Below, piece by piece: positions 10,246 through 57,119 of a stretch of DNA of 64,000 bases. The notes under the pieces are model-generated. The model worked only from the letters and a program-made list of their open reading frames with translations. It was not told the origin of the DNA and searched no databases. How positions within the stretch are numbered: position 1 is the first letter of the stretch; each line of letters starts with the position of its first letter. The position numbers and the translations under genes are program-made. The stretch lies in the NCBI GenBank assembly GCA_977862235.1, contig OZ374562.1, forward strand, positions 434,001-498,000, given 5' to 3'. Origin of the DNA: Dudresnaya verticillata. Taxonomy: Eukaryota.

Positions 10246-11026
10246 CTTGGCTGGCGCGCTACTCTACACACTGTACAGATACTCACTAAAAATAGAGAAT
10301 AAATACTACAAATACTCCGCTACGGTTGGTGCGTTACACTGCTGTACAGCAATGCGTACCAGCGTACAGCAATGCGCACAACATCCGACACGGTTACACG
10401 TTTCCAGATTGTAAGGAAGGACCTTTTGGGTCTCTTGTGAACTCAAAGAGTGCACTCAATGAGAAAGCCGCAGCGCGGGTGCCTGGTAGCGGTGGTAGAG
10501 CGGGAGGAACCCAGAGGGTAGACGAGGGCACGTAACCTGATTGGAAGCACGATACTGAAGGTAGTTCACTGGGCGGGCAGTTAACCGGGCACGGGTGACA
10601 AGTGTGCTGTGGTGCCGATAGCTTGGAGACGTAGTTGGGGCCGGAAGGTGCTTACCTTTACTGTTCAGTGACCGCTACGGGAGATACCCTTATATGGTAT
10701 TCCGACTGTCGGGCAGCACCCCTCATACTGGGCTATATACACGCCCCCTATCCTAAGCTATAATTTCTAAAATAAATAGGCAGATACTAAGCTACTGACC
10801 TGCAGGATGACACTTGGACCAATCATGGGCTACCAATCTTGTCCCTGCTGGCGCCCTATAGGTAACGCTATTTCTGCGCATACAGCGGGCAGAGGGCCCA
10901 CTTTGTGACTTCTGTAAGCCCTTCACTGTATTACACAGATCATCAGCGTGGCGTACTGCCACATCATCCGTTACGGTTGGCTCGCCGTCGGCGTGCCGCA
11001 TGCGCGCCACAGCTCACTTCACCACA
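10246..11026 (-). repeat. 3' LTR remnant of element B (interrupted by solo LTR 10410-10935)
   Basis: Ends CTCACTTCACCACA as at 42001-42014; ~90 bp near-identical to ~41785-41870; adjacent PPT. Confidence 0.8.
10410..10935. repeat. Solo LTR, 526 bp
   Basis: TGTAA...TTACA termini; 5-bp TSD CAGAT (10405-10409 / 10936-10940). Confidence 0.85.
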
Positions 11027-11165
11027 GACCCCCCTCCTTAAATGGCGCCACGTCCTCGGGCGCCGACCGTCACGGATCTCTATCGCTTCCCCACCCACGC
11101 ACACACACAACCGATACGGAAGTGTTCTCATCAGTCCCTTCCCTTTCTTGCGCGCTTCTCCCACC

Positions 11166-12776: not shown

Positions 12777-13614
12777 TGTGGCATAGCTGTAAGACCAGCT
12801 GTGCCACGCACGCGCAGCTGTAAGACCAGCTGCGCCACGTGTGCACTGCTGTGCGCACGCTGTCAGCCGGTGGCGCCGAAGCCCCGCTGAACTGTAAGGG
12901 AGTGCGCAGTGGCGCCCACGTGTACACGCGTTCGCGTGTGACACTGAAACTCCCATGTAATTTCTACGTTTATTGTTTTGTGAGTGTACAGCACCCTCTA
13001 GTGTAAGCGGCGGTCGAACGCCCTGCTGTCCCGCGCGCTGTGCGCACGCACTCCGGCGCAGAGCCGTTGAGTGCGTGACACGCGCGCGCGCACTCCGGCG
13101 TCGAGCCGTTGAGTACGTGTGGACCGTTCCGCCTACGCGCGCCCCCGGGTTACCGTTACCCGTACGCGTCGACGCGTGTTGGGGCGCGCCGGCGCACCTC
13201 CCGGGTTGGTGCCGCCGCAGGCCCTGTAGTATATCTAGTAGTCGCCCCTCTGGGCTGCAGTAAACCAAGGCAAGCCAGCCTACGCCAGGCTTGCCCTTTC
13301 TGCTTTGGGTTTCTTTCCCAGTCCTTCGCCCTACGGCTTCCCTCTTTCCCTAGCCGTCTAGGCTTTCCTTTTCCTTTCCCTACCGTCGGCTTCGTGCCTC
13401 CCCACGACGGGGACGCAGGGATCCGGCCGCTGCCGCCCGCGTACGGTACGCCCCGTGCGCGCTCAGGCTTCGACGCCGTTGATCCGCGACCGTCGACGGC
13501 GCGCGCGGCCGACACCACCGCTCTACCACCACAGCTACCACCCTTCGACGGGTCTTGGCGCGACTGATCGACCAGCGCAGCTAGACGTCAGTTCGACCTG
13601 ACGTCTATGCCACA
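12777..13614 (+). repeat. 5' LTR of element A
   Basis: Direct repeat of 25087-25924. Confidence 0.97.
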
Positions 13615-13615
13615 C

Positions 13616-13631
13616 TGGTCTCCCGACCTAG
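13616..13631 (+). promoter_or_regulatory. Primer-binding site TGGTCTCCCGACCTAG (probably tRNA-Tyr)
   Basis: 1 nt after the LTR; the first 10 nt are complementary to a ...CGGGAGACCA tRNA 3' end as in yeast tRNA-Tyr. Confidence 0.75.
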
Positions 13632-13682
13632 AAGTCGCAGAAGACCCTATCACCTCTCGCGTCGACGCGATCGAGGCCAAGA

Positions 13683-16097
13683 ATGCCGCCGCTACCTACT
13701 TCGGCCGCTGCCGGTCCGGCAGACGCCGCGGCAGGTGAAGTTGGCGGTCGACGCACTTCCTTGCTGAGTAACGTCGGCGTCTCAGGAGCTCCCCTAGAGG
13801 AACCGCGCATCGAGCGCAGGGCGGCTATAGCCAAGGCCCTAGGAGGGACAGCGGTCTCTGCGACCGACCTCCAGCTACTCTACGAGGAGACGATGGACTC
13901 CTTTTCGGAAGTGTACGACACCTTCATGGCCTCAGTCGCAGACGCACGGGCACAAGGTCAACGTGACCTGGAGTCGCTTCGACGCGGAACTCTCGCCTCC
14001 GTCGAGGAAGGATTAACCCGAACTCAAGGGCTCCTCGACGAGCTACGCCAACGCGTTGAGTTGATTGAGCACGCACCGGCGCGGTATGACCGACGGGCGC
14101 CTAGCCCGTCGCCGGGGCGGAGCCGTCCTCCGCGATCGCCGTATCAAGCGGATCCGGTTCGCGAACTGGCCAAAGCCCTCCTCGCTGAGCGTCGTGCTCA
14201 GCGAAACCCTTTTTCTCCACCGGCCTCTCCGCCTAGGAGTGGGCAAGGGTCCCCTCGCCCTACAAGAGATGACGACCCTTCTACGGGGTCGACCCCAAGC
14301 TACTACGACGCGCCCTCGACGGGCGCGGAGTTGGAGGGGCGTCTAGCCCCTCACCACACGAAGGTCCCGTGTCGGCCTACTGGCACTGGGGGCCATTGAT
14401 GCCGGGCGTCGAGCCGCCGAGCACCTTGGTCCCCGAATTCGCGAAGGCGATCGACTACCGCTCCTATCGTCTAGACGACATAAGGCAGCGGGACAATCAG
14501 CAGCAAGTCTGCAATGGCAACACCGCCAAGATTGTCAGCCGGATGAAGGCTCTCATGCCGCGGCTAGATCGCTACGACGGCAAGGAGCCCATCCGCTTTC
14601 TTGGCGTGCTTAGACAGCTACGCCAAGCCTTCAACGGCGTCGGCCTGTCGGAAGGCGCAGCGGCGCGAGTGGTGTCCTGGTTCCTAGACGGAACGGCATC
14701 CCAGGTGTATTCGAGTCACCTTTTCTCGGGGGTCCGGACGACTAGTCGCGGCACCCCCCCGTGCTGGGCCTCGGTGGTCAATACCCTCGTCGAGAGGTTC
14801 GTCACCGACGACGTGATCGCCGACGCGCACGACCGACTGACCACCGCCCGGCAGTGGGACGCCGAGTCAGAACTCGAGTTCGCCTCTCGTCTAGAGGGCT
14901 ACGCCGATGACTGTGCCGGCGTCTACTCCGACGAGAACCTGACGCACCAGTTCTTGCGTGGTCTGCTTCCGACCACCCGACCCGCAGTAGCGGAGAAGGT
15001 AAGGCAGATGCCGATGGTCGAGCAGACCAACTTCAGTACCGTTCGTCGGATCGCCCACAGTCACAACCTACCGCGCCCGCATGGCCAAGGCGTCGACGCC
15101 GGCCATCGTTTCGGGGCGCGGTAGGGGAAGCAGTTCGCCAAGCGGCCGCACGCTGCTTATCGAGGCGCCACACACACCCGATAGGGAAGCGGCCTTCGAC
15201 GGCACGATGTTGGTGGCGCCCGATGACGATGGTTTCGAACCCGTCATGGTCGTGCCCGCGCTGTCGACAGCCGGGGCGGCGCAAGCCGAGGAGACCCTCG
15301 ACATCTCAGGACGCATCGACGCTGTCCTGCCGAGGAGGATCCCTCCGCTCACACCGGCGCAAGAGGCCATGGCCCGCGCTGTCACCCCTGATCGACAGGG
15401 GTGGTACATCTGCTGGTTCTGCCGAGAACTTGGGCACATCATGTACTCGTGCCCATTCCTGACTAAGGAACAGCAGTTGTACTGCGCGTATGCGAACTGC
15501 AGCCATAGACTGGAGACGCAGCCGCACGCGCGCAACAACTTGCAGCAGCTCATCGACGAGCGCATGCCGGCAGGCGCCAAGGCAAGTTACCCCGCAAGAC
15601 GCTTCGACGCGCAGCGGGGTGGGGCCCGACGCTTCGACGATAGGGGTCCCCCGCAGCGCTTCGACGCGCAAAGGTATCGCGGGGAGCCGCGACAGTACCG
15701 CGGGGATCGTCGAGATCCGCGCCGCGAATACCGAAGGGCAGACGTCCCGCGGTTCCTCACTCGCGACAAGCGGGTCGGGTTTGACGACCAAGCCGGTCGC
15801 CAACCTCGGGCGTCGACACCCTCGAGGCCCGACCCGCAGCGCGAACTGCTTCGGGCAGTGATGACCGTGCAGGAGCACACCGGTCTAGCAGCCGACGAGT
15901 GGCTCCCGCGAGCGCTCGACGCGCAGAGCAAGGGCGAGTCCGCCAGGGGGCAGGTCGAGCAGCCCCCGCTCCTTTTTGACACGCCGCCGCGATCGACGCG
16001 AGGCGCCGGCCCGGCCCCTAGCCAGCCAATGGGATCCGAGGAAGATAGCTCGGATTCCGAAAATAATTTTGACCGGGTCGAACCGGAAAAAGAGTAA
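13683..16097 (+). pseudogene. gag: gag of element A, split by two frameshifts (13683-14399, 14369-15124, 15081-16097)
   Basis: DYRSYRL...YDGKEPI capsid-like region shared with B gag; CCHC knuckle CWFCRELGHIMYSC. Confidence 0.85.
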
Positions 16098-16111
16098 AGG
16101 CGGCGCCGTTC

Positions 16112-19100
16112 GTGCGGTCGCGCGCACCGTCTCTCTCTACCCCAGACCCACCATCCTCCGCCAAGCCGTCGGCGGTAGGCAGGACTTCGAGTCCCAACCA
16201 ACGAAAGACCCCCTCGCCAAGCAGCGCTGAGGGGCCGCTTTGCGACGAGCCGTCGAAAGCCACGCGCTCCAGGCCACCTTGGCCCCCGCGGCGTCGACGC
16301 AAGGGACAGGCACGACGCCGAGCGCATAGGGGTCCGTCGACGGATCCCGAGGCACCCTTCGCTCCACGCGAAGGTGCCATGGCTCTCTGCGTCGACGCGG
16401 AGCCGGCCACTACCCCCGACGGGTATGTGTGCCTCTTCTCCTCGGAGATATACCGCGTGTCTGGGTCGCTAGGCGCTGACCCAGGGGTAATGATACCCCA
16501 CACCATTGCGGTGGACACCGGCTCCGGGTACAACCTCATCGCGAAGCGGGCGCTGCCGCCCGGATGGGATCAGCACGCGGCGGCGATGGAGTCGACTCCT
16601 CGCCTCGCCGGGGCTGATAAGACCCCACTGAGCCTATCAGGGGTGGCGCACCTCTCGATGAGGTTGGGGAACACGACGTTCCGCGTGCCATTCATAGTGG
16701 CAGACACCTTGGCCGTCGAAGCCCTGGTGGGAACGCAGTTCCTCAATGCGCACGTGCGAGGCATCGACGTCGAGTCGAAACGCCTATCGCTCCGACGTGG
16801 GGGCTCGGTGCCCCTCCTCAAGCGCAGTAGGCCTGCCGAGGACCGCAAGCCGTCATCGAAGCCGAAGAACCCGTCGACGGGTTTGTCGAGGAAGCACCAG
16901 AGGGAGCTCCTCGACTGGGATCACGACACCCACACCATCCGCCTCTCTAGGCAGATGGTGCTCCCAGCCTATTCCCAAAGGCTCGTCTCCGTGACTTCAG
17001 GAGCCAGTGGGCTGATCCACACCGAACCCAAACCCTCGTTGCAGTTCCGCCACGGCGTGAGACTTACCAACGGGGTGCACGACGTCGAGTGGATGCGACC
17101 TTTCGGGGTCATCGTCGGGAACTTCACCGACAAGCCTCGGACCCTGCCTAAGGGTACCGTTGTCGGCTACGCGGTTAGGAACCCGGTGGCACTGATAACT
17201 CCAGACCGCAAAGTCGCGGAGGAGTTTGGGCGGGTGATGAACATCACCACCCTACCACCACGGGGGCAGAGGCCCCCGGTCAATCAGGGTGCCGTGGAAC
17301 CATCCACCTCGCCGTCGACGGCGAAGAGCACCGACGCCCAGCCGCTGCAGGGCGCAGCTACCGCCGCAGCGAAGGCCAACCCGTCCGTCGAGGACTGGGA
17401 GGCGCAGGTCAACCTCTCGTCTATCGAAGACGAGGTGACCCGCACGGAGGTCCTCTCCATGCTCAGGAAGCATCAGTCCATGTGGGACGGGAGGCTGGGC
17501 ACTATTGCCGCCACCCGACACCACATCGACGTGGAACGGGGCACTCGCCCCATCCGCTCCATGCCCTACCGACAGGGCCCTGCCATGCGCAAGCTGGTGC
17601 AGGACGAGGTGGATAACATGCTTCGTGCAGGGGTTATCGAACCCGCCACCTCGGAATGGGCATCGCCAGTCGTCCTGGCGCCCAAGAAGGACGGCACACT
17701 TAGGTTTTGCGTGGACTATCGACGTCTCAACACGAAAACACTAAGTGATGCGTACCCTCTACCGAGGATGGACGACTGCATCGACAGTCTAGGCGACGCA
17801 GCCGTCTTCTCGACGTTGGACTGCAACGCGGAGTACTGGCAAATCCCTGTCGCAGAGGCTGACAGGGATAAGACCACGTTCACTTCGTTCTTAGGGACGT
17901 TTCGCTACTTGCGAATGCCCTTCGGGCTGAAGAACGCCCCCGCGACTTTCCAGCGCGCACTAGACATCATCCTCAGCGGATTCCGATGGCAGTGCTGCCT
18001 GATCTATCTAGACGATGTGATCATTTTCTCGCGGTCGATCGCGGAGCACGTTGGTCATTTAGACCAAGTGCTGACTCTGTTGCACAAGGGAGGAGTATCC
18101 CTGAAACTGAAGAAGTGCCACTTCTTTCAGTCACGCGTTGGCTATCTCGGCCACGTCATCGAACCGGGGAAGCTACGCATGGCGCAGACGAGCAGCGACG
18201 CTTTCCGCCATGCGCAGTTCCCGACCTCCCTGACTAAGGTGAGGTCGTTCCTCGGCGCGTGCAATGTCTATCGCCGCTTCCTGCGCAACTTCGCGAAGAT
18301 CGCGCGTCCTCTGACGAACATGACCCGCAAAGACGCGGATGTGGATTTCGACAATCCAAGCGCCGACGCGCTCGAGGCATATGAGACGCTCCGAGCGAAG
18401 CTCATATCGCCCCCTATCCTACGGCTCCCCAAGACGGGTAGACCCTACGTCCTCGATACGGACGCATCGGCTTATCAGCTCGGATGCGCCCTACTGCAGG
18501 AGCAGGAGGACGGCCAGCTACACCCAGTCGGGTACTGGTCCTACTCGCTCAACTCGGCGGAACGGAATTACTCCGCCACTGAGCGTGAGTGCTTCGCAGT
18601 GGTGTGGTCGATCACAACCCTGCGGCCATACATCGAAGGCACGCGATTCACGGTTCGAACCGATCACGATGCGCTTCGATGGCTGATGTCGCTGACCGAC
18701 TCTTCGGGTCGACTGACCCGGTGGCGCCTGCGGCTCGCGGAATTCGACTTCCAGATCGAGTACCGCCCCGGGCGGGTACACCAAGTCCCGGATGCCCTGT
18801 CCCGCTTGGTTCGACCCCAGCGGAAACAGGAGGAGGTTGACGACGACGTCCCTACCTTTGACCCCCCGGCGGTCGACCGCCCGCAAGGGGAGTCCTCGGC
18901 TGAGACGCCGGTGGCACGTCCGGGTACAGAACCCGCGGCTCCCGTCTTGGTAACCACACGCTCGCGGTCCAACGCATCTACGCGTTCGGCCCCAGCGCAG
19001 CCCGTTCCGAAGCCAGTCCGTGTAAGCATCACCGGCACCGCGCCCAAGACGGGCGCGGCAGATGAACCCCCGGACTTGGCCGACGAAGCGGCGTGGGACG

Positions 19101-20821
19101 ACACCGACGACGTCGACCTCTTCGATCTCCTCCGCGTCGACGCGGGCGACGAGCCATCGGACTTGACGTCCGTGGAGCCAGTGAAGCTCCCTTCACCTAT
19201 TTCCGTCGAGGAATTTGTGGACGCGCAGCGGCACGACTCCTTCTGCCAGACCGTACTGGCCAGGCAGTCCCGTCGACGGGATAGCCATTTTTACGAGGAC
19301 GGGGATGGGCTTCTATGCCGCCATCATCCGGTCATAGCTTCGCTAGACCAGATAGTGGTGCCCGAGTCGTTACAGCCTCGGCTGCTCACGCTCGCGCACC
19401 ACTCCCTCCTCGCGGGCCACCCAGGGCAGAACAAGATGTTCTATTCCCTGCGTGAGACCTACTACTGGCCGCATATGGCGGCCAGCATCGCCATGACAGT
19501 AAGAAACTGCAGGCACTGTGCCCGTAACCGCATTCGACTGCGCAGACACCTTCATAGACTGAAGCTGTTCCCGGCCACCAGGCCGCTGGAATCCGTTGCT
19601 ATCGACATACTGGGCCCCTTGCCCAAGACCAAGTCTGGTCGCAAATTCCTCGTCATCATGACGGACCGCTTTACCAAGCTAACGCAAGTCGCGCCTCTGC
19701 GCACCATTACGGCTTACAACGTCGCAGTTGTCTTCTGTGAACAGTGGGTCTTCCACTACGGGCCGCCTAGGTCCTTGCTTTCCGATAACGGAAAGCAGTT
19801 CACATCGAAGTTCTTCCAAGCCGTCTGCCGGTATTTGGGTTTGAACAACGTGTTCACCTCCGCGTATCACCCCCAGTCGACTGGGCAGGCTGAACGCTAC
19901 AACCGGACCGTCATGGCCATGTTGAGGAACTACGTCAACGATCACCAAAACGATTGGGATCGCTACGCCTCTGCGTTGACGTATTCCTACAACTGTCACG
20001 TGCACCGCTCGACGCGGACGACTCCATTCAGCTTAGTGCTGTCACGGCCTCCGCCGGAATTTACTAAGTTTCACTCGGCGGTCGACCGCCCGAAACCTAG
20101 TGAGGATGTCCGAACGGACTTCCTCAAGCGGTTAGACACCGCTATGGGCCTGGCTTCTGCCGCCCTGGCCAAAACGCAGAGGCGTTACAAAAAGGACTTT
20201 GACCGACGGGTCCGGAAGGTCAACTCCCGCATCAAGGCCGGAGACTACGTCTTCATCGACGCAACTGACGGGGTGACGAAACCACCGAAGTTGCAGAGCC
20301 CGGCCATCGGGCCTTATCGCGTGCTGCTCAACGACGAGCGCACGTTGTTTATCGACAGAGACGGCCTGGTCGAACGCATCGCAGCGGACCGAGCCGTCTT
20401 CTGTCCCCCGCCTCTGCGGGAAGACACCGCGCGTCGAAGCGCGTACTTGCCCACAGCTAACGATCTCGCGTCCAAGGCCGTCGACGGCCCGCGGTTCGTG
20501 GTGGACAAGGTACTTGACTATGGCACGGCCGAAGACGGCACGATGCTCTTTCAGGTCAAGTGGACCGGCTACTCTAAGCCCACTTGGGAACCTCGATCCC
20601 ATTTGCCGGAGGAGATGATGAGCCAATACTTCCGCGCGAAGAAGCGTCGGAAGGACTCTGGGCTCGACGCCCCATCCCCTCCACTCGCCCCCTCGGCGGG
20701 GCGCCTCGTGCTTAAGGAGGGGGCCCCAGGCATTCTTTGCCTCAGGCATTCCTTGCCTGTTATTACCCTCATCCAGGCATCCTTTGCCTTTTTCCCAGCG
20801 ACGGGAACACGTGGGGCCTAA
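16112..20821 (+). CDS. pol: pol of element A: PR-RT-RNaseH-IN-chromodomain (in -1 frame relative to the gag end)
   Basis: VDTGSG protease; RFCVDYR, MPFGLKNAP, YLDD; DTDAS RNaseH; HHCC plus DDE integrase; GPY; VDKVLD..VKWTGY..TWEP chromodomain. Confidence 0.97.
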   Translation: MRSRAPSLSTPDPPSSAKPSAVGRTSSPNQRKTPSPSSAEGPLCDEPSKATRSRPPWPPRRRRKGQARRRAHRGPSTDPEAPFAPREGAMALCVDAEPATTPDGYVCLFSSEIYRVSGSLGADPGVMIPHTIAVDTGSGYNLIAKRALPPGWDQHAAAMESTPRLAGADKTPLSLSGVAHLSMRLGNTTFRVPFIVADTLAVEALVGTQFLNAHVRGIDVESKRLSLRRGGSVPLLKRSRPAEDRKPSSKPKNPSTGLSRKHQRELLDWDHDTHTIRLSRQMVLPAYSQRLVSVTSGASGLIHTEPKPSLQFRHGVRLTNGVHDVEWMRPFGVIVGNFTDKPRTLPKGTVVGYAVRNPVALITPDRKVAEEFGRVMNITTLPPRGQRPPVNQGAVEPSTSPSTAKSTDAQPLQGAATAAAKANPSVEDWEAQVNLSSIEDEVTRTEVLSMLRKHQSMWDGRLGTIAATRHHIDVERGTRPIRSMPYRQGPAMRKLVQDEVDNMLRAGVIEPATSEWASPVVLAPKKDGTLRFCVDYRRLNTKTLSDAYPLPRMDDCIDSLGDAAVFSTLDCNAEYWQIPVAEADRDKTTFTSFLGTFRYLRMPFGLKNAPATFQRALDIILSGFRWQCCLIYLDDVIIFSRSIAEHVGHLDQVLTLLHKGGVSLKLKKCHFFQSRVGYLGHVIEPGKLRMAQTSSDAFRHAQFPTSLTKVRSFLGACNVYRRFLRNFAKIARPLTNMTRKDADVDFDNPSADALEAYETLRAKLISPPILRLPKTGRPYVLDTDASAYQLGCALLQEQEDGQLHPVGYWSYSLNSAERNYSATERECFAVVWSITTLRPYIEGTRFTVRTDHDALRWLMSLTDSSGRLTRWRLRLAEFDFQIEYRPGRVHQVPDALSRLVRPQRKQEEVDDDVPTFDPPAVDRPQGESSAETPVARPGTEPAAPVLVTTRSRSNASTRSAPAQPVPKPVRVSITGTAPKTGAADEPPDLADEAAWDDTDDVDLFDLLRVDAGDEPSDLTSVEPVKLPSPISVEEFVDAQRHDSFCQTVLARQSRRRDSHFYEDGDGLLCRHHPVIASLDQIVVPESLQPRLLTLAHHSLLAGHPGQNKMFYSLRETYYWPHMAASIAMTVRNCRHCARNRIRLRRHLHRLKLFPATRPLESVAIDILGPLPKTKSGRKFLVIMTDRFTKLTQVAPLRTITAYNVAVVFCEQWVFHYGPPRSLLSDNGKQFTSKFFQAVCRYLGLNNVFTSAYHPQSTGQAERYNRTVMAMLRNYVNDHQNDWDRYASALTYSYNCHVHRSTRTTPFSLVLSRPPPEFTKFHSAVDRPKPSEDVRTDFLKRLDTAMGLASAALAKTQRRYKKDFDRRVRKVNSRIKAGDYVFIDATDGVTKPPKLQSPAIGPYRVLLNDERTLFIDRDGLVERIAADRAVFCPPPLREDTARRSAYLPTANDLASKAVDGPRFVVDKVLDYGTAEDGTMLFQVKWTGYSKPTWEPRSHLPEEMMSQYFRAKKRRKDSGLDAPSPPLAPSAGRLVLKEGAPGILCLRHSLPVITLIQASFAFFPATGTRGA

Positions 20822-21960
20822 GCCCCACGGTAAGGGCATGAATTGCGGCTGCCTAAGCCGGCGGCCCAAGCCGAAAGCACCCTGCGCCAATGGCAGAGGC
20901 CAAGGAGCAGGCGTGCTCTGCGAACTGCGCATCGCAGGGACGCTGGGCACGACGCCCCTCGCTACTACCGGCTCGACGCCCGGCAGTAGCGACGTCCCGC
21001 TACGCGGAAGACAACCCGCACCGTCGGGGGTTGTCTGACCAACGCCGACGCGAAGCCGCGCACAGATGGCGGAGGGAAGGCGTCGACGCCCCCTTCACCA
21101 ACGCCGCGCCGCGGTCGCGCGTAATATTCGGCCAACAACCACCGCCCTGGCTCCTAGCCGGGCGGGGTGCCAACGCACACAGATCCCACGTCGAGGTGGG
21201 GCGCCAGAGCCAAGAAGGCCGGCGTCCTTCGAGTTGCACCGCTGCGCTTCGACGAGCGAGCGGCACAACCACCGCGACGGTGGGAAGGCCGGGGGCACCG
21301 CGGCAGACGACCGGCCCCTGCCAAATACAGGCGCGCGCTTACCCATATTTGGGACGCGTGCGCCCCACAAGCGCAGAGGCGCAGATTTGTGTTCAGGCTA
21401 CAGTGTCTACTATAGCCAAAACACAAATAATTGGGAACGCCCAATGGGGTTCGACACCCCCGGGCCTCTGCCCACTCATCCAGGGGCATCGACGCCCCTG
21501 GCCTGGGTTGGCTGCACAAGCCGCCGCCACGCTCGTGGCTACTCCCGGCGGAGGGGACCCCGTCGACGCGGTCACCTCCGGCGCAAAGCCGCGACGCCAC
21601 TAGGGGCACCCGCTCCGCGCTGACGCTCCGCGTCGACGCGGTGTTGCGCGCGCTGGCAGCCCCCTGTGTGGCGTCGACGCCAGCACTGCGGACCGCCACC
21701 CGCTTCGACGTGGGTCAGGCACAATAGCACCCATGAGGAGGTGGGGCGTCGAAGCCCCACCACCTGCTACAGCGAGCATAGCTCGCACGCAGCCGCGCGG
21801 TCGAAGGCGCAGCTGTTGAAAACGCGTCGACGCGGACCGAAGTCTTCGCCCACCCCTTGCCCTTTTATGAACCAGACACGCAGCGGCGGTCTAAAAACTA
21901 GCGAGGCGATCGACCGCCTCGAACTAGGATGCTTCTACAGCATAAGCCACTACGGCATAA

Positions 21961-24754
21961 CTACTGGGCGGCCTCGCCCCCAGAACCCACGCCGGGAAAG
22001 GCGGGCGCAGAGCCCGCTGCCCCCGGCGCCGCGGGCACGTAGCCCTCAACCACCATTGTGATTGCCGCTGGCGCTGGTGGAAGACCCCCGGCGGGAAGCG
22101 GAGGCGCCGAGCCTCCGTACGCCACTGCGCCCCCACCTATGGGAGCTGCAGGGCGGTAAGGGCCCATCGACGGGCCCCTCACTTGCGGAAGAACCGCTTG
22201 CTGTGGCACGACGCCTGCAGCACTGGGCGGCGCGCCTGCGCCGCCCTGAGCGCCTGGGTACATCAGTTGCCCGGCGCCTTGCCAAGGGGCAGCCGGGCCA
22301 GAAGGGCCCGGAGCGTACGACTGCATCGGCTGCATCGACGCATACCCCGTCGGGGGCGGCTGGTACTCCTCGCGAAGCCTCTTGCGCGCCGGCGCATAAG
22401 ACATGCGCTGGACTTCCCCGCGGAGCCTCTGCACCTCGCGGGCAAAGCCGTCCCGCTCGTCGCGGTATCGAACCGCGACGGCATTGGAGGCGTTGACGTC
22501 CTCCTGCAGCGCCACTGCGCTCGATGCCAGGGCCTGCAGGAGCGTGCGTGTCGACACGCCTTGCCCGACGCGCGCCAAGGAGGCCGCGCTGCGTACAGTC
22601 GGATCGGCCCAGACTGCCGCACTCACCGCCTCGTCCAGTGGGTCGACCACTGGAGGAGGTGGGACATAAGCCACCGCCGGCGACCCAGACGGTTCCGGCG
22701 GGGGCTGGTACACCTCAACGGCAGCGGCCGGAGGGGCGCGGGCCGTCGACGGCCCCGCAGCAGCCGGTCCGCCGACTGCCGCAGGGGCGGCTGGCGCACG
22801 ACGCGCAGACGCCCTTGCGGGCGGCGGGATGTATGACTCGGTCTCCGCCGCCATGACGGCCGCGGCTGACCCAGGGTTAGCACCCACGCCACGACGGCGA
22901 CGACCGGCGCGCTCAGTGCGGGCCATGTCGGCCACCGAGGCGAACCCGGAGCGCTCGACGCGCTCCCGCCGGTCACGTGCGCCACGATTGCGCTGGATCT
23001 TATAGAGGCCCCCTATCTCTGGCAAGAAGCCACACACGAACGCGTCGACGCGTGAAGAGAAGTGACGCCTCCGCGTGTGCTTCTCCGTTGCCGCAGCCAC
23101 TCGGCGGACTACGCCGAGTAGCTCGCCGAACCCAAAAGACGTGCCATCCGAAGGACGGAGCAAGTCTGGGAAACACGGCCTCTCGCTTGACCAGCCGGTC
23201 GCGAGGAAATTAATCAGACGGTCGTCGAAGACCCAGCCTGTCCCCTTCGCGAGGAGCTCGCTACAGTAGCGGCGGCCCACCTCGAAGGCGTATTCATCTG
23301 AGCGCCTAGCCAGGAGCTCACGACGAGCAGCTACGCGACCGACTGTCGCGTAGTGGAAATACCGGTCTACGGTTATCCACGGGATAGTGAATCCCGATGG
23401 CGTCTCCCGGTGGGAGTACCACTCCGCTGATGGGAACCCGGCCGCGTCGAGCGCCGGGTGCAACTTGCACCCCTTTGACGGGCGTCCTTCGCCCGGGGCC
23501 TTGCACACGTCCCAGTCCCGCTCCCCGAAGCACACCCCAAAGAGGCGGCGCGCAGAGTCGGCATCGGCCAGACGGTGCGCGAGGTCCACGGGCTCGTCGA
23601 CGGGCACCGTGCGCATCTCTGGGATGGTGGCAGGCAGGGGCGGGGCCCACTCATCGGCGGGTGTCAGGAAGAGGGCATCGGCTGCCCTGTCCACCCGCCG
23701 AAGCTCCTCAAGGGACGTAAGAAACGTCGCCGGGTAACCCTAACGGCGTGAGCCAGACTATGGCGTCCGCCGGGAGGAAAGCGGCATAGGCTGCCGCCCC
23801 TCCGTCCACGCTCGCGTGGGCCACCCTCAGGAGCCGCCGGACGCCTGCCCGAGGCTCCTGCAGCCCGCGCCACTGATCCAGCGGGATTTGGTGGCGCGGC
23901 GCCCCCCAGGCGAAGACCGTCTCTTTCGGGGGCGCGTGCTGTCCAGGGGGCGCCTGGCCCATGAGGGGCGGTCCGACTGAGACCGACACCCCAACAAGAG
24001 GCACGACGGGCGCAGCGGTGGACTCACCCACGCCCGCGGCCTCCCCCTCTGCGTTGGCAGAGGCCACGGGAGACGGCGTCGGGACCGTCGACGGCCCCAA
24101 GCCACTAGAATCGCGCGGCACAAAGGGTGCCGCCGCTGCGGGGACTTTCCCCGACCCTGATGGCGTGGGTGACCTCGACCGACTCAGGTCGAGCACCCTC
24201 GCCACCATCGGCACCGCGGAGCGCGAAGGGTGCTCCGCGGGTGCCCCTCCTCGCGTCGACGCGGGTTGATTGCTGTGAGCCGTAGGCCCTGCGCGAGGCG
24301 GGCCAGTCGGCTGAAAGAACCGAGCCGCCGCTACTGGGCGCGGGGCGGCAGAGGCCGCCCCACTCGGGTCCTTCACTCTCTTGCCCTGCGCCGCAGCAAG
24401 GGCCACCGCCTCTGACCAGACGTCAGCGGCGGGCGTTGGGGTGGGGTTGGCGTCGACGCCACCCGCCCCGGCGGACGAAGCCGGCGCAGCAGCCCCGGCC
24501 TTGCCCAGCGCACCCGTCGATGGGGGCGCTTCTTCTGGCGCAACCGTCGAAGGTTGCGCCTCTTCTGTAGCGACCGTCGAAGGTCGCTCTGCGGTTGGCG
24601 CGGCCGTCGAAGGCCGCGTCTCTCCGCCAGCCGGCGCCCTTGGCACCGGCTCGGCAGGCCCACCCCCTACGACTGCCTCAGCCGAGGAGGTGGGCTTGGT
24701 AACCGGCGCCCCCTCGGCGGGGGCGCCGTCCGCGATCGGTTCGCGTGACTCCAT
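21961..24754 (-). CDS. Element A antisense accessory ORF (~930 aa; one frameshift near 23710-23740 joins 23708-24754 and 21961-23694)
   Basis: Two long abutting ORFs antisense to pol, between pol and the 3' LTR; Ala/Pro-rich ends, aromatic core and coiled coil. Confidence 0.7.
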
Positions 24755-25074
24755 CGCCGCGTCGACGCTGGCGATGGGGGAGGAAGTTGAGAGGGTCGAA
24801 AGCTTGGCGCGTATGGCACTGGTCGACAGGCAGCTGTACGCGTGGGGCAGGGAGTGTTGGCGGTCGTGGTGAGCGATGACCAGACCACCCACCCCTCGGA
24901 GCCGCAGAGGCGGCTCCCTAAATAGCCCGTCGCGGCTCAGCGCGGGCACACCCGACGTGGCATCGACGCCCGTCACCGACGGACGCCCGGGAGCCCGCTT
25001 GCCAATCCCGGGCGCCGTCTTGGCCACCCCACAGCGTGCGCGTTGTAACGGTCGCAACCGAGGCGTTCGCGCTT

Positions 25075-25083
25075 GAGGGGGGG
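25075..25083 (+). promoter_or_regulatory. Polypurine tract of element A
   Basis: GAGGGGGGG 3 nt before the 3' LTR. Confidence 0.8.
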
Positions 25084-25086
25084 TTG

Positions 25087-25924
25087 TGTGGCATAGCTGT
25101 AAGACCAGCTGTGCCACGCACGCGCAGCTGTAAGACCAGCTGCGCCACGTGTGCACTGCTGTGCGCACGCTGTCAGCCGGTGGCGCCGAAGCCCCGCTGA
25201 ACTGTAAGGGAGTGCGCAGTGGCGCCCACGTGTACACGCGTTCGCGTGTGACACTGAAACTCCCATGTAATTTCTACGTTTATTGTTTTGTGAGTGTACA
25301 GCACCCTCTAGTGTAAGCGGCGGTCGAACGCCCTGCTGTCCCGCGCGCTGTGCGCACGCACTCCGGCGCAGAGCCGTTGAGTGCGTGACACGCGCGCGCG
25401 CACTCCGGCGTCGAGCCGTTGAGTACGTGTGGACCGTTCCGCCTACGCGCGCCCCCGGGTTACCGTTACCCGTACGCGTCGACGCGTGTTGGGGCGCGCC
25501 GGCGCACCTCCCGGGTTGGTGCCGCCGCAGGCCCTGTAGTATATCTAGTAGTCGCCCCTCTGGGCTTCAGTAAACCAAGGCAAGCCAGCCTACGCCAGGC
25601 TTGCCCTTTCTGCTTTGGGTTTCTTTCCCAGTCCTTCGCCCTACGGCTTCCCTCTTTCCCTAGCCGTCTAGGCTTTCCTTTTCCTTTCCCTACCGTCGGC
25701 TTCGTGCCTCCCCACGACGGGGACGCAGGGATCCGGCCGCTGCCGCCCGCGTACGGTACGCCCCGTGCGCGCTCAGGCTTCGACGCCGTTGATCCGCGAC
25801 CGTCGACGGCGCGCGCGGCCGACACCACCGCTCTACCACCACAGCTACCACCCTTCGACGGGTCTTGGCGCGACTGATCGACCAGCGCAGCTAGACGTCA
25901 GTTCGACCTGACGTCTATGCCACA
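25087..25924 (+). repeat. 3' LTR of element A
   Basis: Direct repeat of 12777-13614, followed by TSD GTTGG. Confidence 0.97.
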
Positions 25925-25929
25925 GTTGG

Positions 25930-26199
25930 GATGAGGACCGTGTCCTATCGGTGCCCCCGCTTAAGCCCGGAGTGGGTGAGCCACATTTCCTTCATCGAGA
26001 AGATCGGCGTCCGGAATGGTTGGCCTTAGAGGTGCAGGCCTATCGTGGTTATGCGCCTCGCCAAACACCAAGGGATGCGTACCGTGACGGTTTGGACGGG
26101 GCCGAAGATTGGGGGAGTTGTCAGGAGACAGCGGGGCGTTCGCGTGCAATCGACCCGCGCGATTCCGTTACGGTGAGGCAGCAAGAAGCTGGCCCCTTC
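25930..26199 (+). pseudogene. Element B antisense ORF, part 2 (90 codons)
   Basis: Reads ...GYSW|DEDRVLSVPPLKPG...EAGPF| in frame with parts 1 and 3. Confidence 0.75.
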
Positions 26200-27785
26200 T
26201 GTAGTAGAATGGCCCTCGGCCAGGTAGTCGGCGATAAAACGGCGCGAGAGCTGTCCTGGGGACAAACAATCACGGTGGGCGGTAGCTCAAAGGAAAAGGG
26301 AAAAAGGGGTGTGGTAGAGACTTGTAATGGGTGTAATACCCAGGAACAAAGAAAAGGGAAGGCGAACCCTACAGCGTAGAGCAATCGTCGTACACGATAG
26401 GGCTTGTAGACGCCCAAGGCAAGGGAACAACGGTGGCACCGTAGGAAGACCAGAAAATGGGTACAGCCCAAAGTACACACCGCTGCCGGTTTACTGCGGG
26501 GCCCCTGCTACTCAGGGGCCCAATAAATACGGCGGGAAGCCGGAAATGCTACCCACTCTAAGTTAGAGTTATAATACTGACAGTTGCCTAATACTGTACA
26601 CTAAGGGTGGATTATGTAGTGCCAGGTGGGGGTCCCCCATTTTCGCTTTCAAGCGGGTTGATATGCAGCGTCTACCGACGGACGACCGCCAACGGCGCGC
26701 TCAACCCGCCCGCGGCGCAAACACGTCACCGAAGCATGCCGCTGGCCACTTGGACCAGAACGGCTCGCTTGGCGTGCAGACCGCACGCCTGAACCCGGGA
26801 CACTGTACGGCGCCACGCGTACGCGCATGGCGCAGTGGCGGGAACGTTCGCTGTAAGCATGGCCCGAATCCGGATCCAATCGGGATCCCACATCGGGATC
26901 AGACATCGGGATTAAGAGGTGTCAGGCACGCGCCTGTAAGCCTGGCGCATCCGCATGGCTGGCCCGAATCCGGACTGGATCGGGATTGGTGCGGATCGAG
27001 ATCGCACGCGCCATGGGGTGCATGCGGCTGTAAGGAAGTAATCCACCTGTAGGTGTAAGGACTCGAGCGGGGAAGCTACACGTGATCTGTCAGGAGCGCG
27101 GCTGCATGACGGACGGATCTGTCAGACGCGCCTCGGGACAACACGTGTCCCGAGTTCCCGCGTGGCGCGTAGACACGCGTCGCCGCCGCTAGGTAATTCT
27201 ATACTTAGTTGATCCGTCTCAGACGTCACAGTAAACCCCGGCAAGCCGGCCTTGGTCCAAGCTTCCCCGTTCAGCACGCGCGGACCCTACCGCTGCCTAC
27301 TACTAAGCGTCTACCTCCCGTGCTTCCACGTCTCTACCCGTCTTTGACGTGTTCCCTTTTTGTTCCCTTTTGTTCTTCCTTTCCGCCTCGGGCGTTTACA
27401 GTCCGCCCAAGGCGAGTCAACTGCTCTACCACAAGTCGCCCAAGGCGAGGCTACTCACCGCCACGGGCGTCGCTACCCACCGAGCCCCGAACTGCTCGGC
27501 GGTGTTCCGTCTAGGACGTTTGCACTACAGATTACAATCCAATGATAGGAATAAGTGGTAGTACCACTACGAGGTACCGGCGCGCTGCTGTCTGGCGCGC
27601 AATGCCAAAAATAGGTACAGGCGCGCTGGTTGTCTGGCGCGCAGTGCCAGAAATATGGGTGACCATGATTAATCAACCAATGGGACTCGGCCATCTCAAC
27701 CATCGCACCCTCGGGCGCCTCACGCCTTACAGGCGTCGCCTGTACACGTGTTTGCTTACAGCGCTCGGGCGCTCATTGTTCCACA
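26200..27785 (-). repeat. Solo LTR (~666 bp net) containing a nested solo LTR
   Basis: TGT...ACA termini; TSD CCTTC (26195-26199 / 27786-27790); removing it restores the reading frame; orientation inferred. Confidence 0.85.
26615..27529 (+). repeat. Solo LTR, 915 bp (family of 43830-44718 and 45386-46368)
   Basis: TGTAGTGC...GCACTACA termini; TSD GATTA. Confidence 0.9.
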
Positions 27786-27790
27786 CCTTC

Positions 27791-28783
27791 TTGGAAGAAC
27801 AGGAGGAGGTCATGCCCCTCGCATCAATGGCAGCGGATATCGAGAAGACAGCCGCTCCAATCCTTCCGGTGGCCGCTACACCCACGTCGCGCAATGTAGA
27901 TCGTGAGACTACTATTCCCGTATCGGATAAGGCACCAACGCCCATAGGCGCGGTTGTGCCTACTATGGCGGTGCCCAAGCCTGCGGCACCATCCGAGAAG
28001 GGGGCCTCAAAGGAGCAGACCGTTTCGGAAGTGGCGCCGGGTACTGTGCCGGCGGCACTGTCTACTGCGACGCAAATTCCTGCAGCCGCCGAACCGCCCC
28101 AGCCAAGTGCTCCGCTGTTGGCGCCCACTCCCATACCAGCGGTGAGTGAGGCTCCGATCACAGTATCGGAAGTGGCTGCAAAGCGCCCAAGTGTCGGGGC
28201 AGCTGGTGACAAGCCTTCGGTCCCCGCGTCAGGTCCTGAACCGTTACGGAAAAGCGATATCGCCTCGCTAGAGAAGGACACGAATCCACCGCTGCGGAAG
28301 GAAGTACCTTCACCCGAGTCGGGACCATCCGTATTGGTGGTTTCCTCAACGGAGCACTCAATCGAAGCCGGGGTTAGGGATAAGCCGTCGATCTACCCGA
28401 AGGTAGAGTTTCAAGAAGATGAGGATCCCCCCGTTACGGTTCCGGCTCACTTAGCCGCTACGGAAAGTGGGTTACAGGTGCTACGGGGCATTTGCCGTAC
28501 GCAGCGCTTCCCATTGCCGGGATCCGTTCAGGAAGCGCTAACCTTAGCGGAGGGGCTGATGGAAAAGGTGATTCATCTCCGCGGAGTGGTACATCGTCAG
28601 CGTCGGCGTATGGATAATGCAATCCGCATCTTAGGAGACAAGAAGCAACGCGCATTCCAACCGGATCCGACTGGAGAACCCGGGTTACGAACGGGTCAGG
28701 GGGTAACGAGGAAGATACAGTTGCCCCTGCTCCGAAGCGGCGTCGCCGTAACTCTTAGAGTTACAGTTCGACGATCTCCTTAA
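27791..28783 (+). pseudogene. Element B antisense ORF, part 3 (330 codons plus stop)
   Basis: |LEEQEEVMPLAS... Pro/Ala-rich, then helical VQEALTLAEGLMEKVIHLRGVVHRQRRR; stops 75 nt from the pol/chromodomain stop. Confidence 0.75.
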
Positions 28784-28858
28784 CGGTTTCAATTATGCCT
28801 CGACCTTAGCTTGCGATAAACATTGTGTGTTCTCACACACCAGCACTCCAACTGTCCG

Positions 28859-31800
28859 TTACGGCGAGTGACGTGTTGGATTAGCACGTCGCCGTGGCTT
28901 GCCCTTACCGGAGGTCTTTTTCTTTTGCTTCCAATACCGGTAGATGAAATTCTGCGGCAACTCCTCCGCGGGCTCAAAAGTGTCCTGATCCGGAGGGTAA
29001 CCATACCAGCGGACTTTATAGGTCATCCTAGTAGGTTCGTCGGGGTGACCGACAATCTTGTCGATCACATATTCCGTATCGGCTTGTAGAGGTTCCGCTC
29101 CGGAGGGTGTAATGCCCGCTGACGGCGTAGGCGTTACTGCCGTACCTTCTGGATGTGGCACTACTTCTCCTTAAACGGTTGATGGCCCGACAGGCGGCAC
29201 TGTTAAGGGCGCCGGCTGAACCGCAACTCCGATCGGAACTTTCGTGATGCGATCGATGCTTACTGGGATCAATACCCCTTCCTTGCGGAATGTAACCACA
29301 TTTTCCGTTGCGGATTCCACTTCATAAGGCCCCGTGGCTCGCGGAAGAAGTTGCTTCATTTCCTGAGCCACCTCGCCCACATTACCCGGTTTGCCTTCCA
29401 ATCGGTCCCGCTCACGGCGTTCGGCAGGCCGCAAGTTATGGGGCGGCCGGTCGACATAGACTTGATCTCCGCTACGGATTATGGGCCTAGAGCGCACCTT
29501 ACGGTCAAAACGTGCCTTGGCTTTTTGCTGAGCCACTGTCTGCTTAGTGCGCGCTGTCTGGAGCGCATACCGTAAACGGCTCATGGTGCTCCGCTTCTGT
29601 AACACCGGGGTCATACGCCCTTCCGTAACGGTTTCTTGATGCTCGGCAGGAGCCCCTCGTACAACAATGTCCGATGGGTGGCGTGTCAGCACCAAATCAA
29701 ATGGCGTTGTTTCCGTAATACGGTGTACCTGCATGTTGTACGCATACGTCAACGGCTGCAGGTACAAATCCCAATCGGAGTGATGATCCTCAACGTAATG
29801 TCGCAAACGCTGGGCGATTGTCTTATTAAATCGCTCAGCTTGCCCATTTGTTTGCGGATGGTAGGCAGCGGTTAATAGGTGCCTGAATCCGAGTAAGGAA
29901 CACACCGCGTCAAAGAACTTAGCAGTAAACTGCGGTCCGTTATCGGATAGGACAAATTGGGGTGCGCCATACGCATAAACCCAAAAGTCCAGAAAGGCGT
30001 TAGCCACCACAACGGCTGTTGTTGTCCGTAACGGAATACAGCGCGTCAGCGTAGAGAACCGATCGGTTATTACCAGAACGTAGACATAACCCCGTTTTGT
30101 CTTCGGAAGTGGCCCGAGAATGTCGATAGCGACAAACTCCAAAGGTCCGCTAGCGGGGAAAAGTTTCATAAACCTTTGATTCCGAAAGCGGGTTCCCTTT
30201 GTCTTCACGCAGGAGCGACATGTCTGAACGGATTCAAATACATCGTTGGCCATATGAGGCCAATAATAATCCTGTCGGAGTGTATAATACATCTTATTTC
30301 CGCCTGGGTGGCCCGACATCAGGGTGTAGTGGGATAAATACAATACCCGTCCACGGAGTTTGCTTGGCATCACCTTCTGTAGAGCGCCATCCAATTGGGA
30401 CTTGCGTACCAAGAATCCGTTACGGTCATAGTCAAACTGTGATCCAGGGGAGCCTACCGTATCGGCTTTGAGACGACAGAAAGGGTCTCTGGCTTGGGCT
30501 TCGAGGAACTCCTCCCTGGTAATTGTCTCATCCTTAACGTCGGATTCTTGGATTACAGTAAACCGTGACGGTGTTGCGTCGGGCTTGTCAGGGGAGGCAG
30601 ATGCACTCCCACTGGCGAGCTCCACGGCGCATATTACGTTATTTTCCGTAGCGGTTTCTCGTGATGTAGCCCAATCGGTTAAATAAACTCCATGCTCATA
30701 TAATCCGTCGACGGTATTTTCGGCGACAAAGCAGGGTATCTCTTCATCCAAAGGTCTATTGTCACCGCCATCCGTTCGGAGTCGCGACATCCCATCGGCG
30801 AGTTGATGCTTAATTCCAGGACGGTATTGCACCTCAAATTGAAATTCCGATAGGCGGAGCCTCCACCTGGCTAGGCGGCCAGATGAATCTGCGAGGTTCA
30901 GGATCCACCGCAGGGCATCATGATCCGTTCGGAGAATAAACTTGTCACCATAAACGTAGGGTTGGAGTGTTAACATGCTCCAGACCACGGCTAAGCATTC
31001 CTTTTCGGTTGTCGTATAGTATTTCTCCGCATCGGTGAGGCTTCGGCTCCAATATCCAATAGGGAGGTGATCGGCATTCTGTTGTTCCTGCAGAAGGACA
31101 CAGCCGACTTGGTGGTCACATGCGTCAGTGTCCAACGTATATCTATATCCGTGACGGGGTAGAGCCAATATAGGTGGAGAGATAAGGCGTCTCTTCAGTT
31201 CCTCGAAGGCTTCACATTCCGTATCGGATAATATTCCAAACTCAAAGGGTGAGCCCTTGCCGGTTTTCTCATTTAGCGGAGCTGAAATCCGAGCGAAGTT
31301 GGGTACAAAGCGACGATACACGTTGCACATTCCCAAGAAGGATCGCAATTCCGTTTGGTTAGTCGGCGGCTTCGCGACCTTAACGGATTGGATATTTCGA
31401 TTATCCACTTCTAATTTTCCGGGACGGATAACATGCCCCAGGTATTGTACAGACGCGTTGAAGAAGTCACACTTTGACAATTTCAACGTTACCCCAGCGG
31501 ATCGTAAAAGCGTAAGGACTTCCTTCAGGTGGTGGAAATGTTCCGTAACGGTTTTTGAGTAGACCATTACATCGTCTAGGTAGACGAGGGCAAATTGCCA
31601 TTTAACCGTAGAAAGGATTATATCCACTGCCCGTTGGAAGGTTGCCGGTGCATTTTTCAATCCGAATGGCATTCTCCGAAAACGGTATAAGCCAAAATGG
31701 CTAGTGAAGGTAGTTTTGTCCCTTTCCTCTTCCGGAATCTCGACTTGCCAATATCCACTATTGCAATCCAGGGTGGTCAATACAGTAGCTTCCCCAAGGG

Positions 31801-33135
31801 AATCTATGCACTCATCCATCCTAGGCAAGGGATATGAGTCCCTAACCGTTACGGAATTGAGCCTTCTATAGTCAACACAGAACCGCATGGTGCCGTCCTT
31901 TTTTAGAACGAAAACCACGGGGCTGGCCCACTCCGATGAGGCCGGTTCAATTACCTTAGCGGAAAGCATGCGATCGATTTCTGTCTTTTCGAGATCTCGC
32001 TGCTTATGTCCGGCACGGTATGGGGCTTGATATACTGGCTTAGCTCCGGGAGTTAACTCGATGCGGTGCTTGGCAGCTGTAATGTTGCCAAGATCGCCAC
32101 TCCACATCGACTTATATTCCTCGAGTAGGGTTAAAATCCGTTTGTGGAGCGATGCTTCTTCTGTGCCGATCTGGACTTGATCCTTCCAGTCGGTAGTATT
32201 TGTATTTTCGGTTACGGGTTTGCTTACTTCCTTGTCGTGAGGGGAGATGCTGCTGGCCTTTTCGGAGGTAGGGTTAGAATTAAATGATTGAATAATTCCT
32301 CCCCCTCCTTAAATGGAGGTATACCGTCAACGGTAAAAATAGCAGATGGGGCAGCAGTAGCGAGGCCCACGACAGTAGATTTGGGCAACCGTACCGGCTT
32401 GTTAGAAAACTTAGAGACCCAGATCCGAAACGGTTTGTTTGGTACAACATCCATAATACCATTAGCCATTAATGTAAGGTGCTTAAAAGCCGGCTTTGGA
32501 TGATTTTGTAGAAAGCATAACCCACCCGTGGGGGTATTAACCGTTACGGTGGTTTGAGTCACAGGGGGAATAAGGGTAGATTTTGCTAAACGAAGTTTCT
32601 GAGAAACCGTAGCGTTAGAGAGAGGTGAGGGCTGTAGGGTTGCAGTGGTTCCCGTCTTCGGAATTTTGGCTTGACCAACAAGGGATACCGGTGGGTAATG
32701 ATGAAAAACAACTTTCCGTAACGGAGGGAGTATTGCCTTCACGTAGCGGTCGATGAAGGTAGTTCCCAAAATACAGGGAGCCGCCAAGTTCGCGACCACT
32801 AGAAAATGGACGCGAGCACGGAGCTCTCCGATACGGACGAAAAGTTGGATCTGACCAAGAGGGCGTATAGCGCGATTAGACGCATCCCGTAATGGAGGAC
32901 TGGATGCTGGGCGTATGAGTGGGAGCCATTGGCGCGGAAGGCGCCTGGCACTAATGAGATTGGGCCCAGCGCCAGAGTCCAAGACGGAGATTAAAGGAAG
33001 CATCACGCTATCTGTCCGTCCCACGGTAATTTGCATCTTGTAATTTTGATGTTGCATAAAGAAGATAGTATCATTGGTCTGATAAGCCAATGGGAGTTCC
33101 GTAACGGTATCTCGCCGATCCCCTGGCGGGTCCAC
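28859..33135 (-). pseudogene. pol: pol of element B: PR (32224-33135), RT-RH-IN (29171-32107), chromodomain (28859-29161)
   Basis: VLDSGAG; LDCNSGYWQ, YLDD, DTDAC, integrase core, GPY; YVIDKIV..YKVRWYGY..TFEP; one frameshift and one in-frame stop. Confidence 0.95.
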
Positions 33136-33349
33136 ACTCGCGAGAGGTGGAACGCCGTGAGGCGGGGATGGCGGCGCCCTAACGCATCCCCCTTGAGTTT
33201 TCCGAATTCAAGGTTGCACCAGTCGGATCCGCCTCCATGGGCTCGCGCAATTCTGCGAGTTCCACTCCGTCATGGTCCTCCACCGATAGTATCGGGGCAT
33301 TCCGTTGCGGAGGGGGCTTTTGCGGTCTGCCCCTATTCCCTTGCGGATT

Positions 33350-35659: not shown

Positions 35660-35786
35660 GATGCCTTAACATAACACAACGGTTGTTCTTGCTTGTCTAT
35701 CCAATATTCCGTAACGGGTTGTCGGTACAGCCGAATTCCTACCGTAGCGGATTTCGACGGCTGTTTCTTCCAACCGTGACGGTGTT

Positions 35787-35802
35787 CTAGGTCGGGAGAC
35801 CA
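35787..35802 (-). promoter_or_regulatory. PBS of element B (identical to the PBS of A)
   Basis: Reverse complement reads TGGTCTCCCGACCTAG, 5 nt from the LTR. Confidence 0.8.
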
Positions 35803-35833
35803 AAAGATGTGGTGTAGTGAAAACCCACGAACT

Positions 35834-57099: not shown

Positions 57100-57119
57100 C
57101 CAGTGTGTGCGCTATCGAG

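Follow-up and report, generated by a model that had tools for sequence, protein, structure and literature searches.

Element A, a Ty3/gypsy retrotransposon, carries an antisense ORF that is a real extra gene, situated downstream of pol and before the 3' LTR. This ORF runs on the minus strand from an ATG at 24754 to a stop at 21961, and its approximately 930 codons form two stop-free pieces of 338 and 591 codons. It represents a new gene family in a known slot, antisense and between pol and the 3' LTR. Our overall reading is that it is a genuine gene, probably a distant homologue of the antisense gene of element B, into which A has inserted, and that its product is likely a coiled-coil protein of the nucleus, which would bind the DNA of its own element and regulate it. 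We hold this combined reading tentatively, at slightly less than an even chance.

Antisense genes of two nested retrotransposons

The window, meaning the whole 64-kb stretch of DNA that was analyzed, is eukaryotic in character, with intron-poor genes at 1–9 kb followed by nested LTR retrotransposons. Element A is young, lies on the plus strand and is inserted inside the antisense ORF of the minus-strand element B. LTRs, a primer-binding site (PBS), a polypurine tract, a target-site duplication (TSD), the order RT–RNase H–integrase and a chromodomain after the integrase identify A as a Ty3/gypsy chromovirus; the chromodomain matched Chromo at E = 5e-5, just under the Pfam cut-off. The protease region is presumed, from its position, to lie in the upstream part of A pol. 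Since A gag is spread over three frames though the LTRs differ at a single base, the indels in A may be assembly errors; the same state of the gene (13632–16097) could also reflect recent damage or a non-autonomous lineage. The coordinates are listed in Table 1.

Table 1 Features of elements A and B in the window.
Feature	Position	Strand	Remarks
A 5' LTR	12777..13614	+	838 bp; one mismatch vs 3' LTR
A primer-binding site	13616..13633	+	18 nt identical to PBS of B
A gag	13632..16097	+	three overlapping frames
A pol	16073..20821	+	1582-codon frame; RT, RNase H, integrase, chromodomain
A polypurine tract	25075..25083	+	
A 3' LTR	25087..25924	+	838 bp; TSD GTTGG at 12772-12776 and 25925-25929
A ORF upstream piece	23741..24754	-	338 codons from ATG; disordered region and roughly 70 initial core residues
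A ORF downstream piece	21961..23739	-	591 codons; most of the aromatic core, Pro/Ala linker, coiled coil, basic motif, low-complexity tail
A ORF frame overlap with single frameshift	23708..23739	-	cuts the core domain; L085 alignment runs across
A core domain	22984..23944	-	about 320 aa; end-to-end alignment with L085
A predicted coiled coil, then NLS-like basic motif (RKRLR)	22372..22530	-	weak coiled-coil family match, E 0.095
A dispersed palindromes	12777..25086	.	GTCGAC x37, CGTCGACG x24, GCGTCGACGC x14
B extent	10990..42013	.	own segments 10.7 kb, inserts excluded
B own segments	10990-12776, 25930-26199, 27791-35829, 41369-42013		
B antisense ORF segment 1	11166..12776	+	537 codons; disordered N-terminus and most of core
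B antisense ORF segment 2	25930..26199	+	90 codons
B antisense ORF segment 3	27791..28783	+	330 codons; Pro/Ala linker, helical C-terminus
B gag and pol	29171..35665	-	gag 33926-35665; pol 29171-33207
Solo LTR within B ORF	26200..27785	.	TSD CCTTC; contains second solo LTR 26615-27529, TSD GATTA

The antisense ORF of A has the properties of the eORF-3'R class, being downstream of pol, in reverse orientation and longer than the size criterion of at least 250 codons given for extra ORFs in PMC6317226. It was the sole stop-free frame of six in each of three stretches tested, covering both pieces. A high GC content (67–73% in this DNA), the frameshift and the lack of any homologue in large protein libraries would fit a chance open frame in GC-rich DNA. 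Such an origin is nevertheless very improbable: the longest stop-free run in base shuffles (n = 300) was 337 codons, its frame was the best fit of six to the codon usage of pol, and the aligned relatives described below are under purifying selection.

The antisense ORF of B is likewise real: it runs for 537 + 90 + 330 = 957 codons without a stop, interrupted once by A (TSD GTTGG) and once by a solo LTR (TSD CCTTC). As the palindromic word CCG-N3-CGG is present in all B segments, the ORF at 11–12.7 kb is independently tied to B pol. The original prediction that the two ORFs share position, orientation, size and architecture was borne out by their layout and by composition windows, in which both have a disordered end, an aromatic core, a Pro/Ala linker and a coiled coil.

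Several other features of the window were recorded. A chromodomain of B (28905–29173) is in frame after pol, behind a single stop codon. The LTR remnants of B (10247–10401 and 41785–41938) are fragmentary and only 86% alike, yet its antisense ORF has stayed without a stop. A young Ty1/copia element, whose 563-bp LTRs are 99.8% alike, is inserted in the 5' LTR of B at 35830–41363. A solo LTR of the A family (86%) and two LTRs akin to the solo LTR at 26615–27529 occupy 42888–43738, 43813–44718, and 45736–46368, and a copia fragment (58782–60254) is surrounded, at 55806–62646, by a cluster of repeats of approximately 1 kb, both direct and inverted, that contain 41-bp subrepeats. The host genes at 2–994, 1356–3881, 4854–6131, and 7119–8282 comprise an ORF recognised by eye as a C2H2-type zinc finger, a gene for a PP2C phosphatase, and two ORFs that gave no Pfam match.

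Probable kinship of the A and B cores

In pol, A and B are close relatives, with 106/159 (67%), 77/124 (62%), and 128/233 (55%) identical positions in RT, RNase H, and integrase, respectively, which agrees with the earlier statement that pol is much better conserved than the antisense ORFs. The original prediction had further presented the A ORF as a distant homologue of the B ORF, quoting three colinear peptide matches. All six peptides are present and colinear, with BLOSUM62 scores of 31, 7, and 2 for the three blocks, but these matches do not rise above chance. The best BLASTP match between A and B had E = 1.1, Smith-Waterman alignment of the cores under six settings gave shuffle p values of 0.30–0.95, and the global alignment had Z = −1.3. 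Because A scores against B no better than shuffled sequences do, the quoted matches are not evidence of homology. Blocks 1 and 3 are consistent with how the family alignments described below place these residues, including a four-way MAFFT alignment, in which block 2 (RRYCSELLA/RIFRSEWAM) seems approximately 10 residues out of register. Another A–B register from Smith-Waterman (p about 0.35) was rejected, as it conflicts with the B family alignment. Single-sequence AlphaFold models of A and B (pLDDT 39 and 36) were unusable for the structural check.

A scan with an RT–RNase H alignment yielded 17 loci, most of which were retrotransposon contigs present as contaminants inside bacterial genome bins. 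Seven chromovirus loci extended beyond pol, and a long antisense ORF was found there in three of them: L007 (1007 aa), L010 (853 aa), and L008 (cut at 475 aa). The other four had no antisense ORF of at least 200 aa, on contigs that stop 0.6–2.1 kb after pol. In the RT–RNase H tree, A groups with L001–L003 (97/94), a single clade unites L007–L010 (100/100), and B sits on a long branch of unresolved position. The B-type family of antisense ORFs consists of L007, L008/P0005, L010, and L023, at 26–53% identity, L008 and P0005 being near-identical. Its members have a disordered N-terminus, a Trp-rich core of approximately 370 aa, a coiled coil, and a basic tail.

The B core was compared with this family in several ways. 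Comparison with two members by hhalign gave E = 5.4e-5 over 238 columns, and global alignments with family members gave Z values of 3.6–7.1. Against the four-member HMM, B had P = 1.5e-7, was matched by 0/300 shuffles, and ranked above every unrelated frame among 274 decoys. The five-way core alignment contains 30 invariant columns, including W..R..H, E.R.R, VP.P.V, EW, and LL..H. On these sequence comparisons, the B core clearly belongs to a new family of chromovirus antisense ORFs. The suggestion of a new protein family was thus upheld, as B joins the antisense ORFs of related chromoviruses, and Pfam, NCBIfam, and PDB sequence searches gave no match for any core of either type.

A itself gave no signal against the B-type family. 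The family HMMs gave −2.8 bits or nothing, with 216/1000 shuffles as good; hhalign E values were 0.29–0.65 and not above shuffles; and Z against the five B-type cores was 0.1–0.3. With a seven-member HMM built without A, A ranked 48–101 of 319 and was unreported in one of six settings. The best local alignment puts the first quoted block of A on the same family block as the first block of B.

Relatives of A were found in the bacterial bin G001, which has approximately 450 contigs; the analysis covered 160 of them completely or almost completely, and the last 60 gave no further member. L085 (746 aa) and L086 (1015 aa) were seen by eye to resemble A among six long ORFs, which had been chosen by length and composition from 1013 frames on the first 100 contigs, and L187 and L188 are closely related to L085. 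The alignment of A with L085 spans the entire core and crosses the frameshift; it has 85 identities in 289 aligned positions, a score matched by 0/200 full shuffles, 7/200 window shuffles, and 0/351 natural decoys. The pairwise alignments of A, L085, and L086 share a consistent register at 30 positions, as did 0/317 decoys and 2/400 shuffles. The profile of L085 and L086 matched A with E = 0.09 (34/1000 shuffles as good). In local alignment to A, L085 (score 97) ranked 2 and L086 ranked 190 of 259; the top score of 102 belonged to an unrelated Coq4 protein, a match that was rejected as chance. The L085 core differs from L187/L188 with dN 0.12 and dS 1.5–2.3, and dN/dS in the A-type core is about 0.05–0.08, which shows constraint among close copies and not positive selection. 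The original prediction took the divergence of the two ORFs as what an arms-race or specificity protein would show; the element-specific palindromic words described below would be consistent with such a putative role. L085 and L086 overlap no pol contig in the set, so that their retrotransposon origin is inferred; their GC content (0.61–0.63) and hairpin excess (2.6–2.9 fold) match the A clade.

L085 and L086 also connect A to the B-type family. Against the five B-type cores, their summed global Z was 3.9 with BLOSUM45, reached by 0/300 full and 0/300 window shuffles, and 2.8 with BLOSUM62, reached by 0/300 full and 2/300 window shuffles. Homology of A and B finds support through these intermediates but not directly. 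Profile–profile comparison of the A-type and B-type groups, which had been called for to settle the matter, gave E values of 0.04–0.5, short of significance: 0.038–0.046 at best, 0.08–0.14 with four members, and 0.46–0.5 once A was included. The C-terminal modules have no similarity beyond composition.

We consider that the A and B cores probably descend from one ancestral antisense gene and have diverged much faster than pol, given a chain of two moderate links (Z about 3–4) and a strong positional prior. The less probable reading is that the two genes were captured separately and have their slot and a generic layout in common, with A-type and B-type cores forming two families. It is consistent with the absence of direct A–B similarity and with the profile–profile values between the groups. 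It also has a precedent in plants, where Ty3/gypsy extra ORFs fall into 314 groups; PMC6317226 reads this diversity as independent captures or fast evolution, and its reading as independent acquisitions keeps the two-family explanation alive here. Against separate captures, L085 and L086 beat all 300 full shuffles in comparison with the B-type cores, the optimal alignments set the Pro..Tyr-Phe block of A on the VP.P.V.Y block of the family, and A and B are close kin in pol and PBS.

Further searches covered known folds and additional sources. PDB chains gave nothing below E 0.08 with the A-type or B-type profile, and homologue searches with the A and B cores in large protein libraries found no relative; three repeat proteins from the A core search were dropped as spurious. 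A viral contig collection queried with integrase, RT–RNase H, and the family gave nothing, and 201 genomes of the family to which G001 belongs provided no new retrotransposon source. Foldseek with the low-confidence A and B models and VIA-align with the B model (best Z 4.9) returned nothing usable. The nearest ESM Atlas clusters were NADAR-like for A (0.77–0.78) and PARP-like for B (0.83–0.85), both sub-threshold. These leads, together with the invariant His, Glu, and Arg residues of the B-type core, would suit an enzymatic role for the core, such as ADP-ribosylation or DNA modification. We regard this as improbable: both Atlas scores are within the range reached by shuffled proteins and indicate different families, none of the cores matched Pfam, NCBIfam, or PDB, and no methyltransferase motif was present in the first segment of B, with one loose F.G.G in the A tail.

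Many eukaryotic transposon contigs are present in the bacterial G001 bin (L001–L011, L023, L025–L031, L085, L086, and L105), among them gypsy elements and a Plavaka transposase, and some occur in G002–G004. L049:221–2662 encodes an 814-aa ORF with a disordered N-terminus, a coiled coil, and an uncharacterised helical domain, for which there was no confident Pfam match.

Palindromic words and hairpins

A family-specific short motif at high density was seen in A, B, L007, L008, and L010. In A, GTCGAC occurs 37 times against 6.7–10 expected, and GCGTCGACGC 14 times against 0.16 expected. The own segments of B contain CCG-N3-CGG 81 times, a 10-fold excess over the 7.8 expected, and CCGTNACGG 33 times. 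A third word, CTC-N6-GAG, marks L007, L008, and L010 (25, 25, and 20 copies; 2.7–4.5 expected), all of which have the antisense gene. L009 has 12 copies; this word is weak there, yet no antisense ORF of 200 aa was found in the 2.1 kb after pol. The A and B words have the half-site CGT..ACG in common, the centre being 2 nt long in A and 1 nt in B. No such word was found in the copia insert, host genes, distant retroelements, or bacterial contigs.

The words also lie inside coding sequence in A, B, and the relatives. They exceeded synonymous-codon shuffles in the pol of A (8 vs 0.9), B (15 vs 1.8), L007 (12 vs 1.4), and L008 (15 vs 1.7) and in the gag of B (11 vs 1.6). The excess spans reading frames; CTC-N6-GAG leans to frame 0, and its excess is marginal in L009 and L010.

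The words of A and B differ in character. The flanks of GTCGAC in A are complementary out to 14 bp (32, 31, 29, and 23 of 37 copies vs 19, 17, 14, and 10 expected). The arms thus co-vary while their letters vary, which is hairpin-like and points to structure and not to base reading; short hairpins in A are 2.2-fold over expectation. The B word has neither a strand bias (22 vs 17, p = 0.52) nor an extension, which is what would be expected of a double-stranded site; hairpins are not in excess in B (58 vs 51).

Among the relatives, L001–L005, the closest to A, and L085 and L086 have no dominant word, and most have only generic hairpins. Short perfect hairpins (arm of at least 5, loop 3–7) are 2–4 fold over expectation, also in pol, in L001–L003, L005, L009, L010, L014, L025, L085, and L086. 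The excess is only 1.4 in L004; it is 1.9–3.4 in L006, L009, L010, and L014.

A possible self-recognition system

A literature search turned up no publication describing this ORF family or these words; descriptions of red algal elements that carry such ORFs may exist in subscription papers, Repbase-type records, and supplements, which lay outside its scope. Among the closest known counterparts is the plant eORF-3'R (Retand TRP28/Transposase_28), described in PMC11963269 and PMC6317226 as a long ORF on the strand opposite gag-pol, after pol and before the 3' LTR. It likewise often has coiled-coil regions and is described there as functionally uncharacterised; PMC11963269 proposes that the Retand antisense proteins are DNA-binding regulators. 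Unlike those described for Retand TRP28, the present elements, probably from a red alga, bear chromodomains, and their palindromic words are dispersed and not in tandem arrays. Pfam scans of A, B, and their relatives gave no match to Transposase_28 (PF04195), PF10536, or other Pfam domains.

Another parallel is VANC of the VANDAL transposons (PMC5735166 and PMC13547354), an accessory protein whose core is conserved and which also has variable regions and a coiled coil. The motifs that VANC proteins bind occur at high density in the transposon to which each belongs (PMC5735166), and a coiled-coil multimer of VANC has been predicted (PMC13547354). As here, the short motif is dense in its own element and differs between families. 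VANDALs are DNA transposons, and their motifs are reported as non-palindromic, in the same orientation, and located in non-coding tandem repeats; unlike them, the present words are palindromic, dispersed, and inside coding sequence. Neither Pfam nor PDB sequence searches linked our proteins to VANC or the plant mobile domain (no Pfam match; no PDB match below E 0.08 with either profile). The DAM- and DNMT-carrying LTR retrotransposons (bioRxiv 10.64898/2026.05.21.726589) are also algal, some of them chromovirus-like, and are described as carrying an extra gene aimed at host epigenetics. Unlike in those elements, no methyltransferase domain was detected in the antisense ORFs reported here.

Our best guess, by analogy with VANC, is that the antisense protein may work in the nucleus as an oligomer and regulate the element that encodes it, which we regard as possible but on the unlikely side. 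Basic motifs follow the coiled coil in 6/7 proteins (A, B, L085, L007, L010, and L023; absent in L086). In the proposed mechanism, transcription of the gene would proceed from the element's 3' end, and the protein would oligomerise through its coiled coil and enter the nucleus by the basic motif. The aromatic core of approximately 320–370 aa would recognise the palindromic word (B) or the hairpin (A) repeated along the element. The protein would thereby specifically activate its own family or shield it from silencing, and changes in protein and word would go hand in hand. That the whole chain holds, from 3'-end transcription through oligomerisation, nuclear entry, and core–word recognition to activation or anti-silencing, seems to us somewhat unlikely. 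No DNA-binding fold was identified in the antisense proteins, and the main weakness is that hairpins occur in the A clade without a shared word. More doubtful still is the broadest version, a self-recognition system new for retrotransposons, in which an antisense protein of new fold would bind a family-specific palindrome (CGTCGACG in A, CCG-N3-CGG in B, and CTC-N6-GAG in the relatives) that recurs dozens of times within the element's own genes, and co-evolve with it, as an independent parallel of plant VANC.

A serious possibility, though short of even, is that the genes are homologous and the palindromes have nothing to do with them. The palindromes would then be RNA or single-stranded DNA hairpins serving Gag, integrase, or a host factor, or a fold-back by-product of reverse transcription, and the protein might be, for example, a chromatin or particle scaffold. 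The 2–4 fold hairpin excess in most A-clade pol contigs and that of L006, L009, L010, and L014, the co-varying arms in A, and the A-type relatives without a dominant word are consistent with this explanation. It accounts poorly for B, which lacks a hairpin excess but has a fixed, strand-symmetric word at 10-fold excess, and for the third word in L007, L008, and L010, all carriers of the antisense gene.

The antisense extra genes of Ty3/gypsy elements are a long-standing class of unknown function, and this locus provides a new family with intact natural members. The candidate target of the protein, each element's own palindromic word, makes the function of an antisense ORF testable. If the proposed recognition is true, a retrotransposon would be recoding its own protein-coding DNA so as to accommodate the sites that its regulator needs, and the family would constitute a natural series of sequence-specific DNA-binding proteins.
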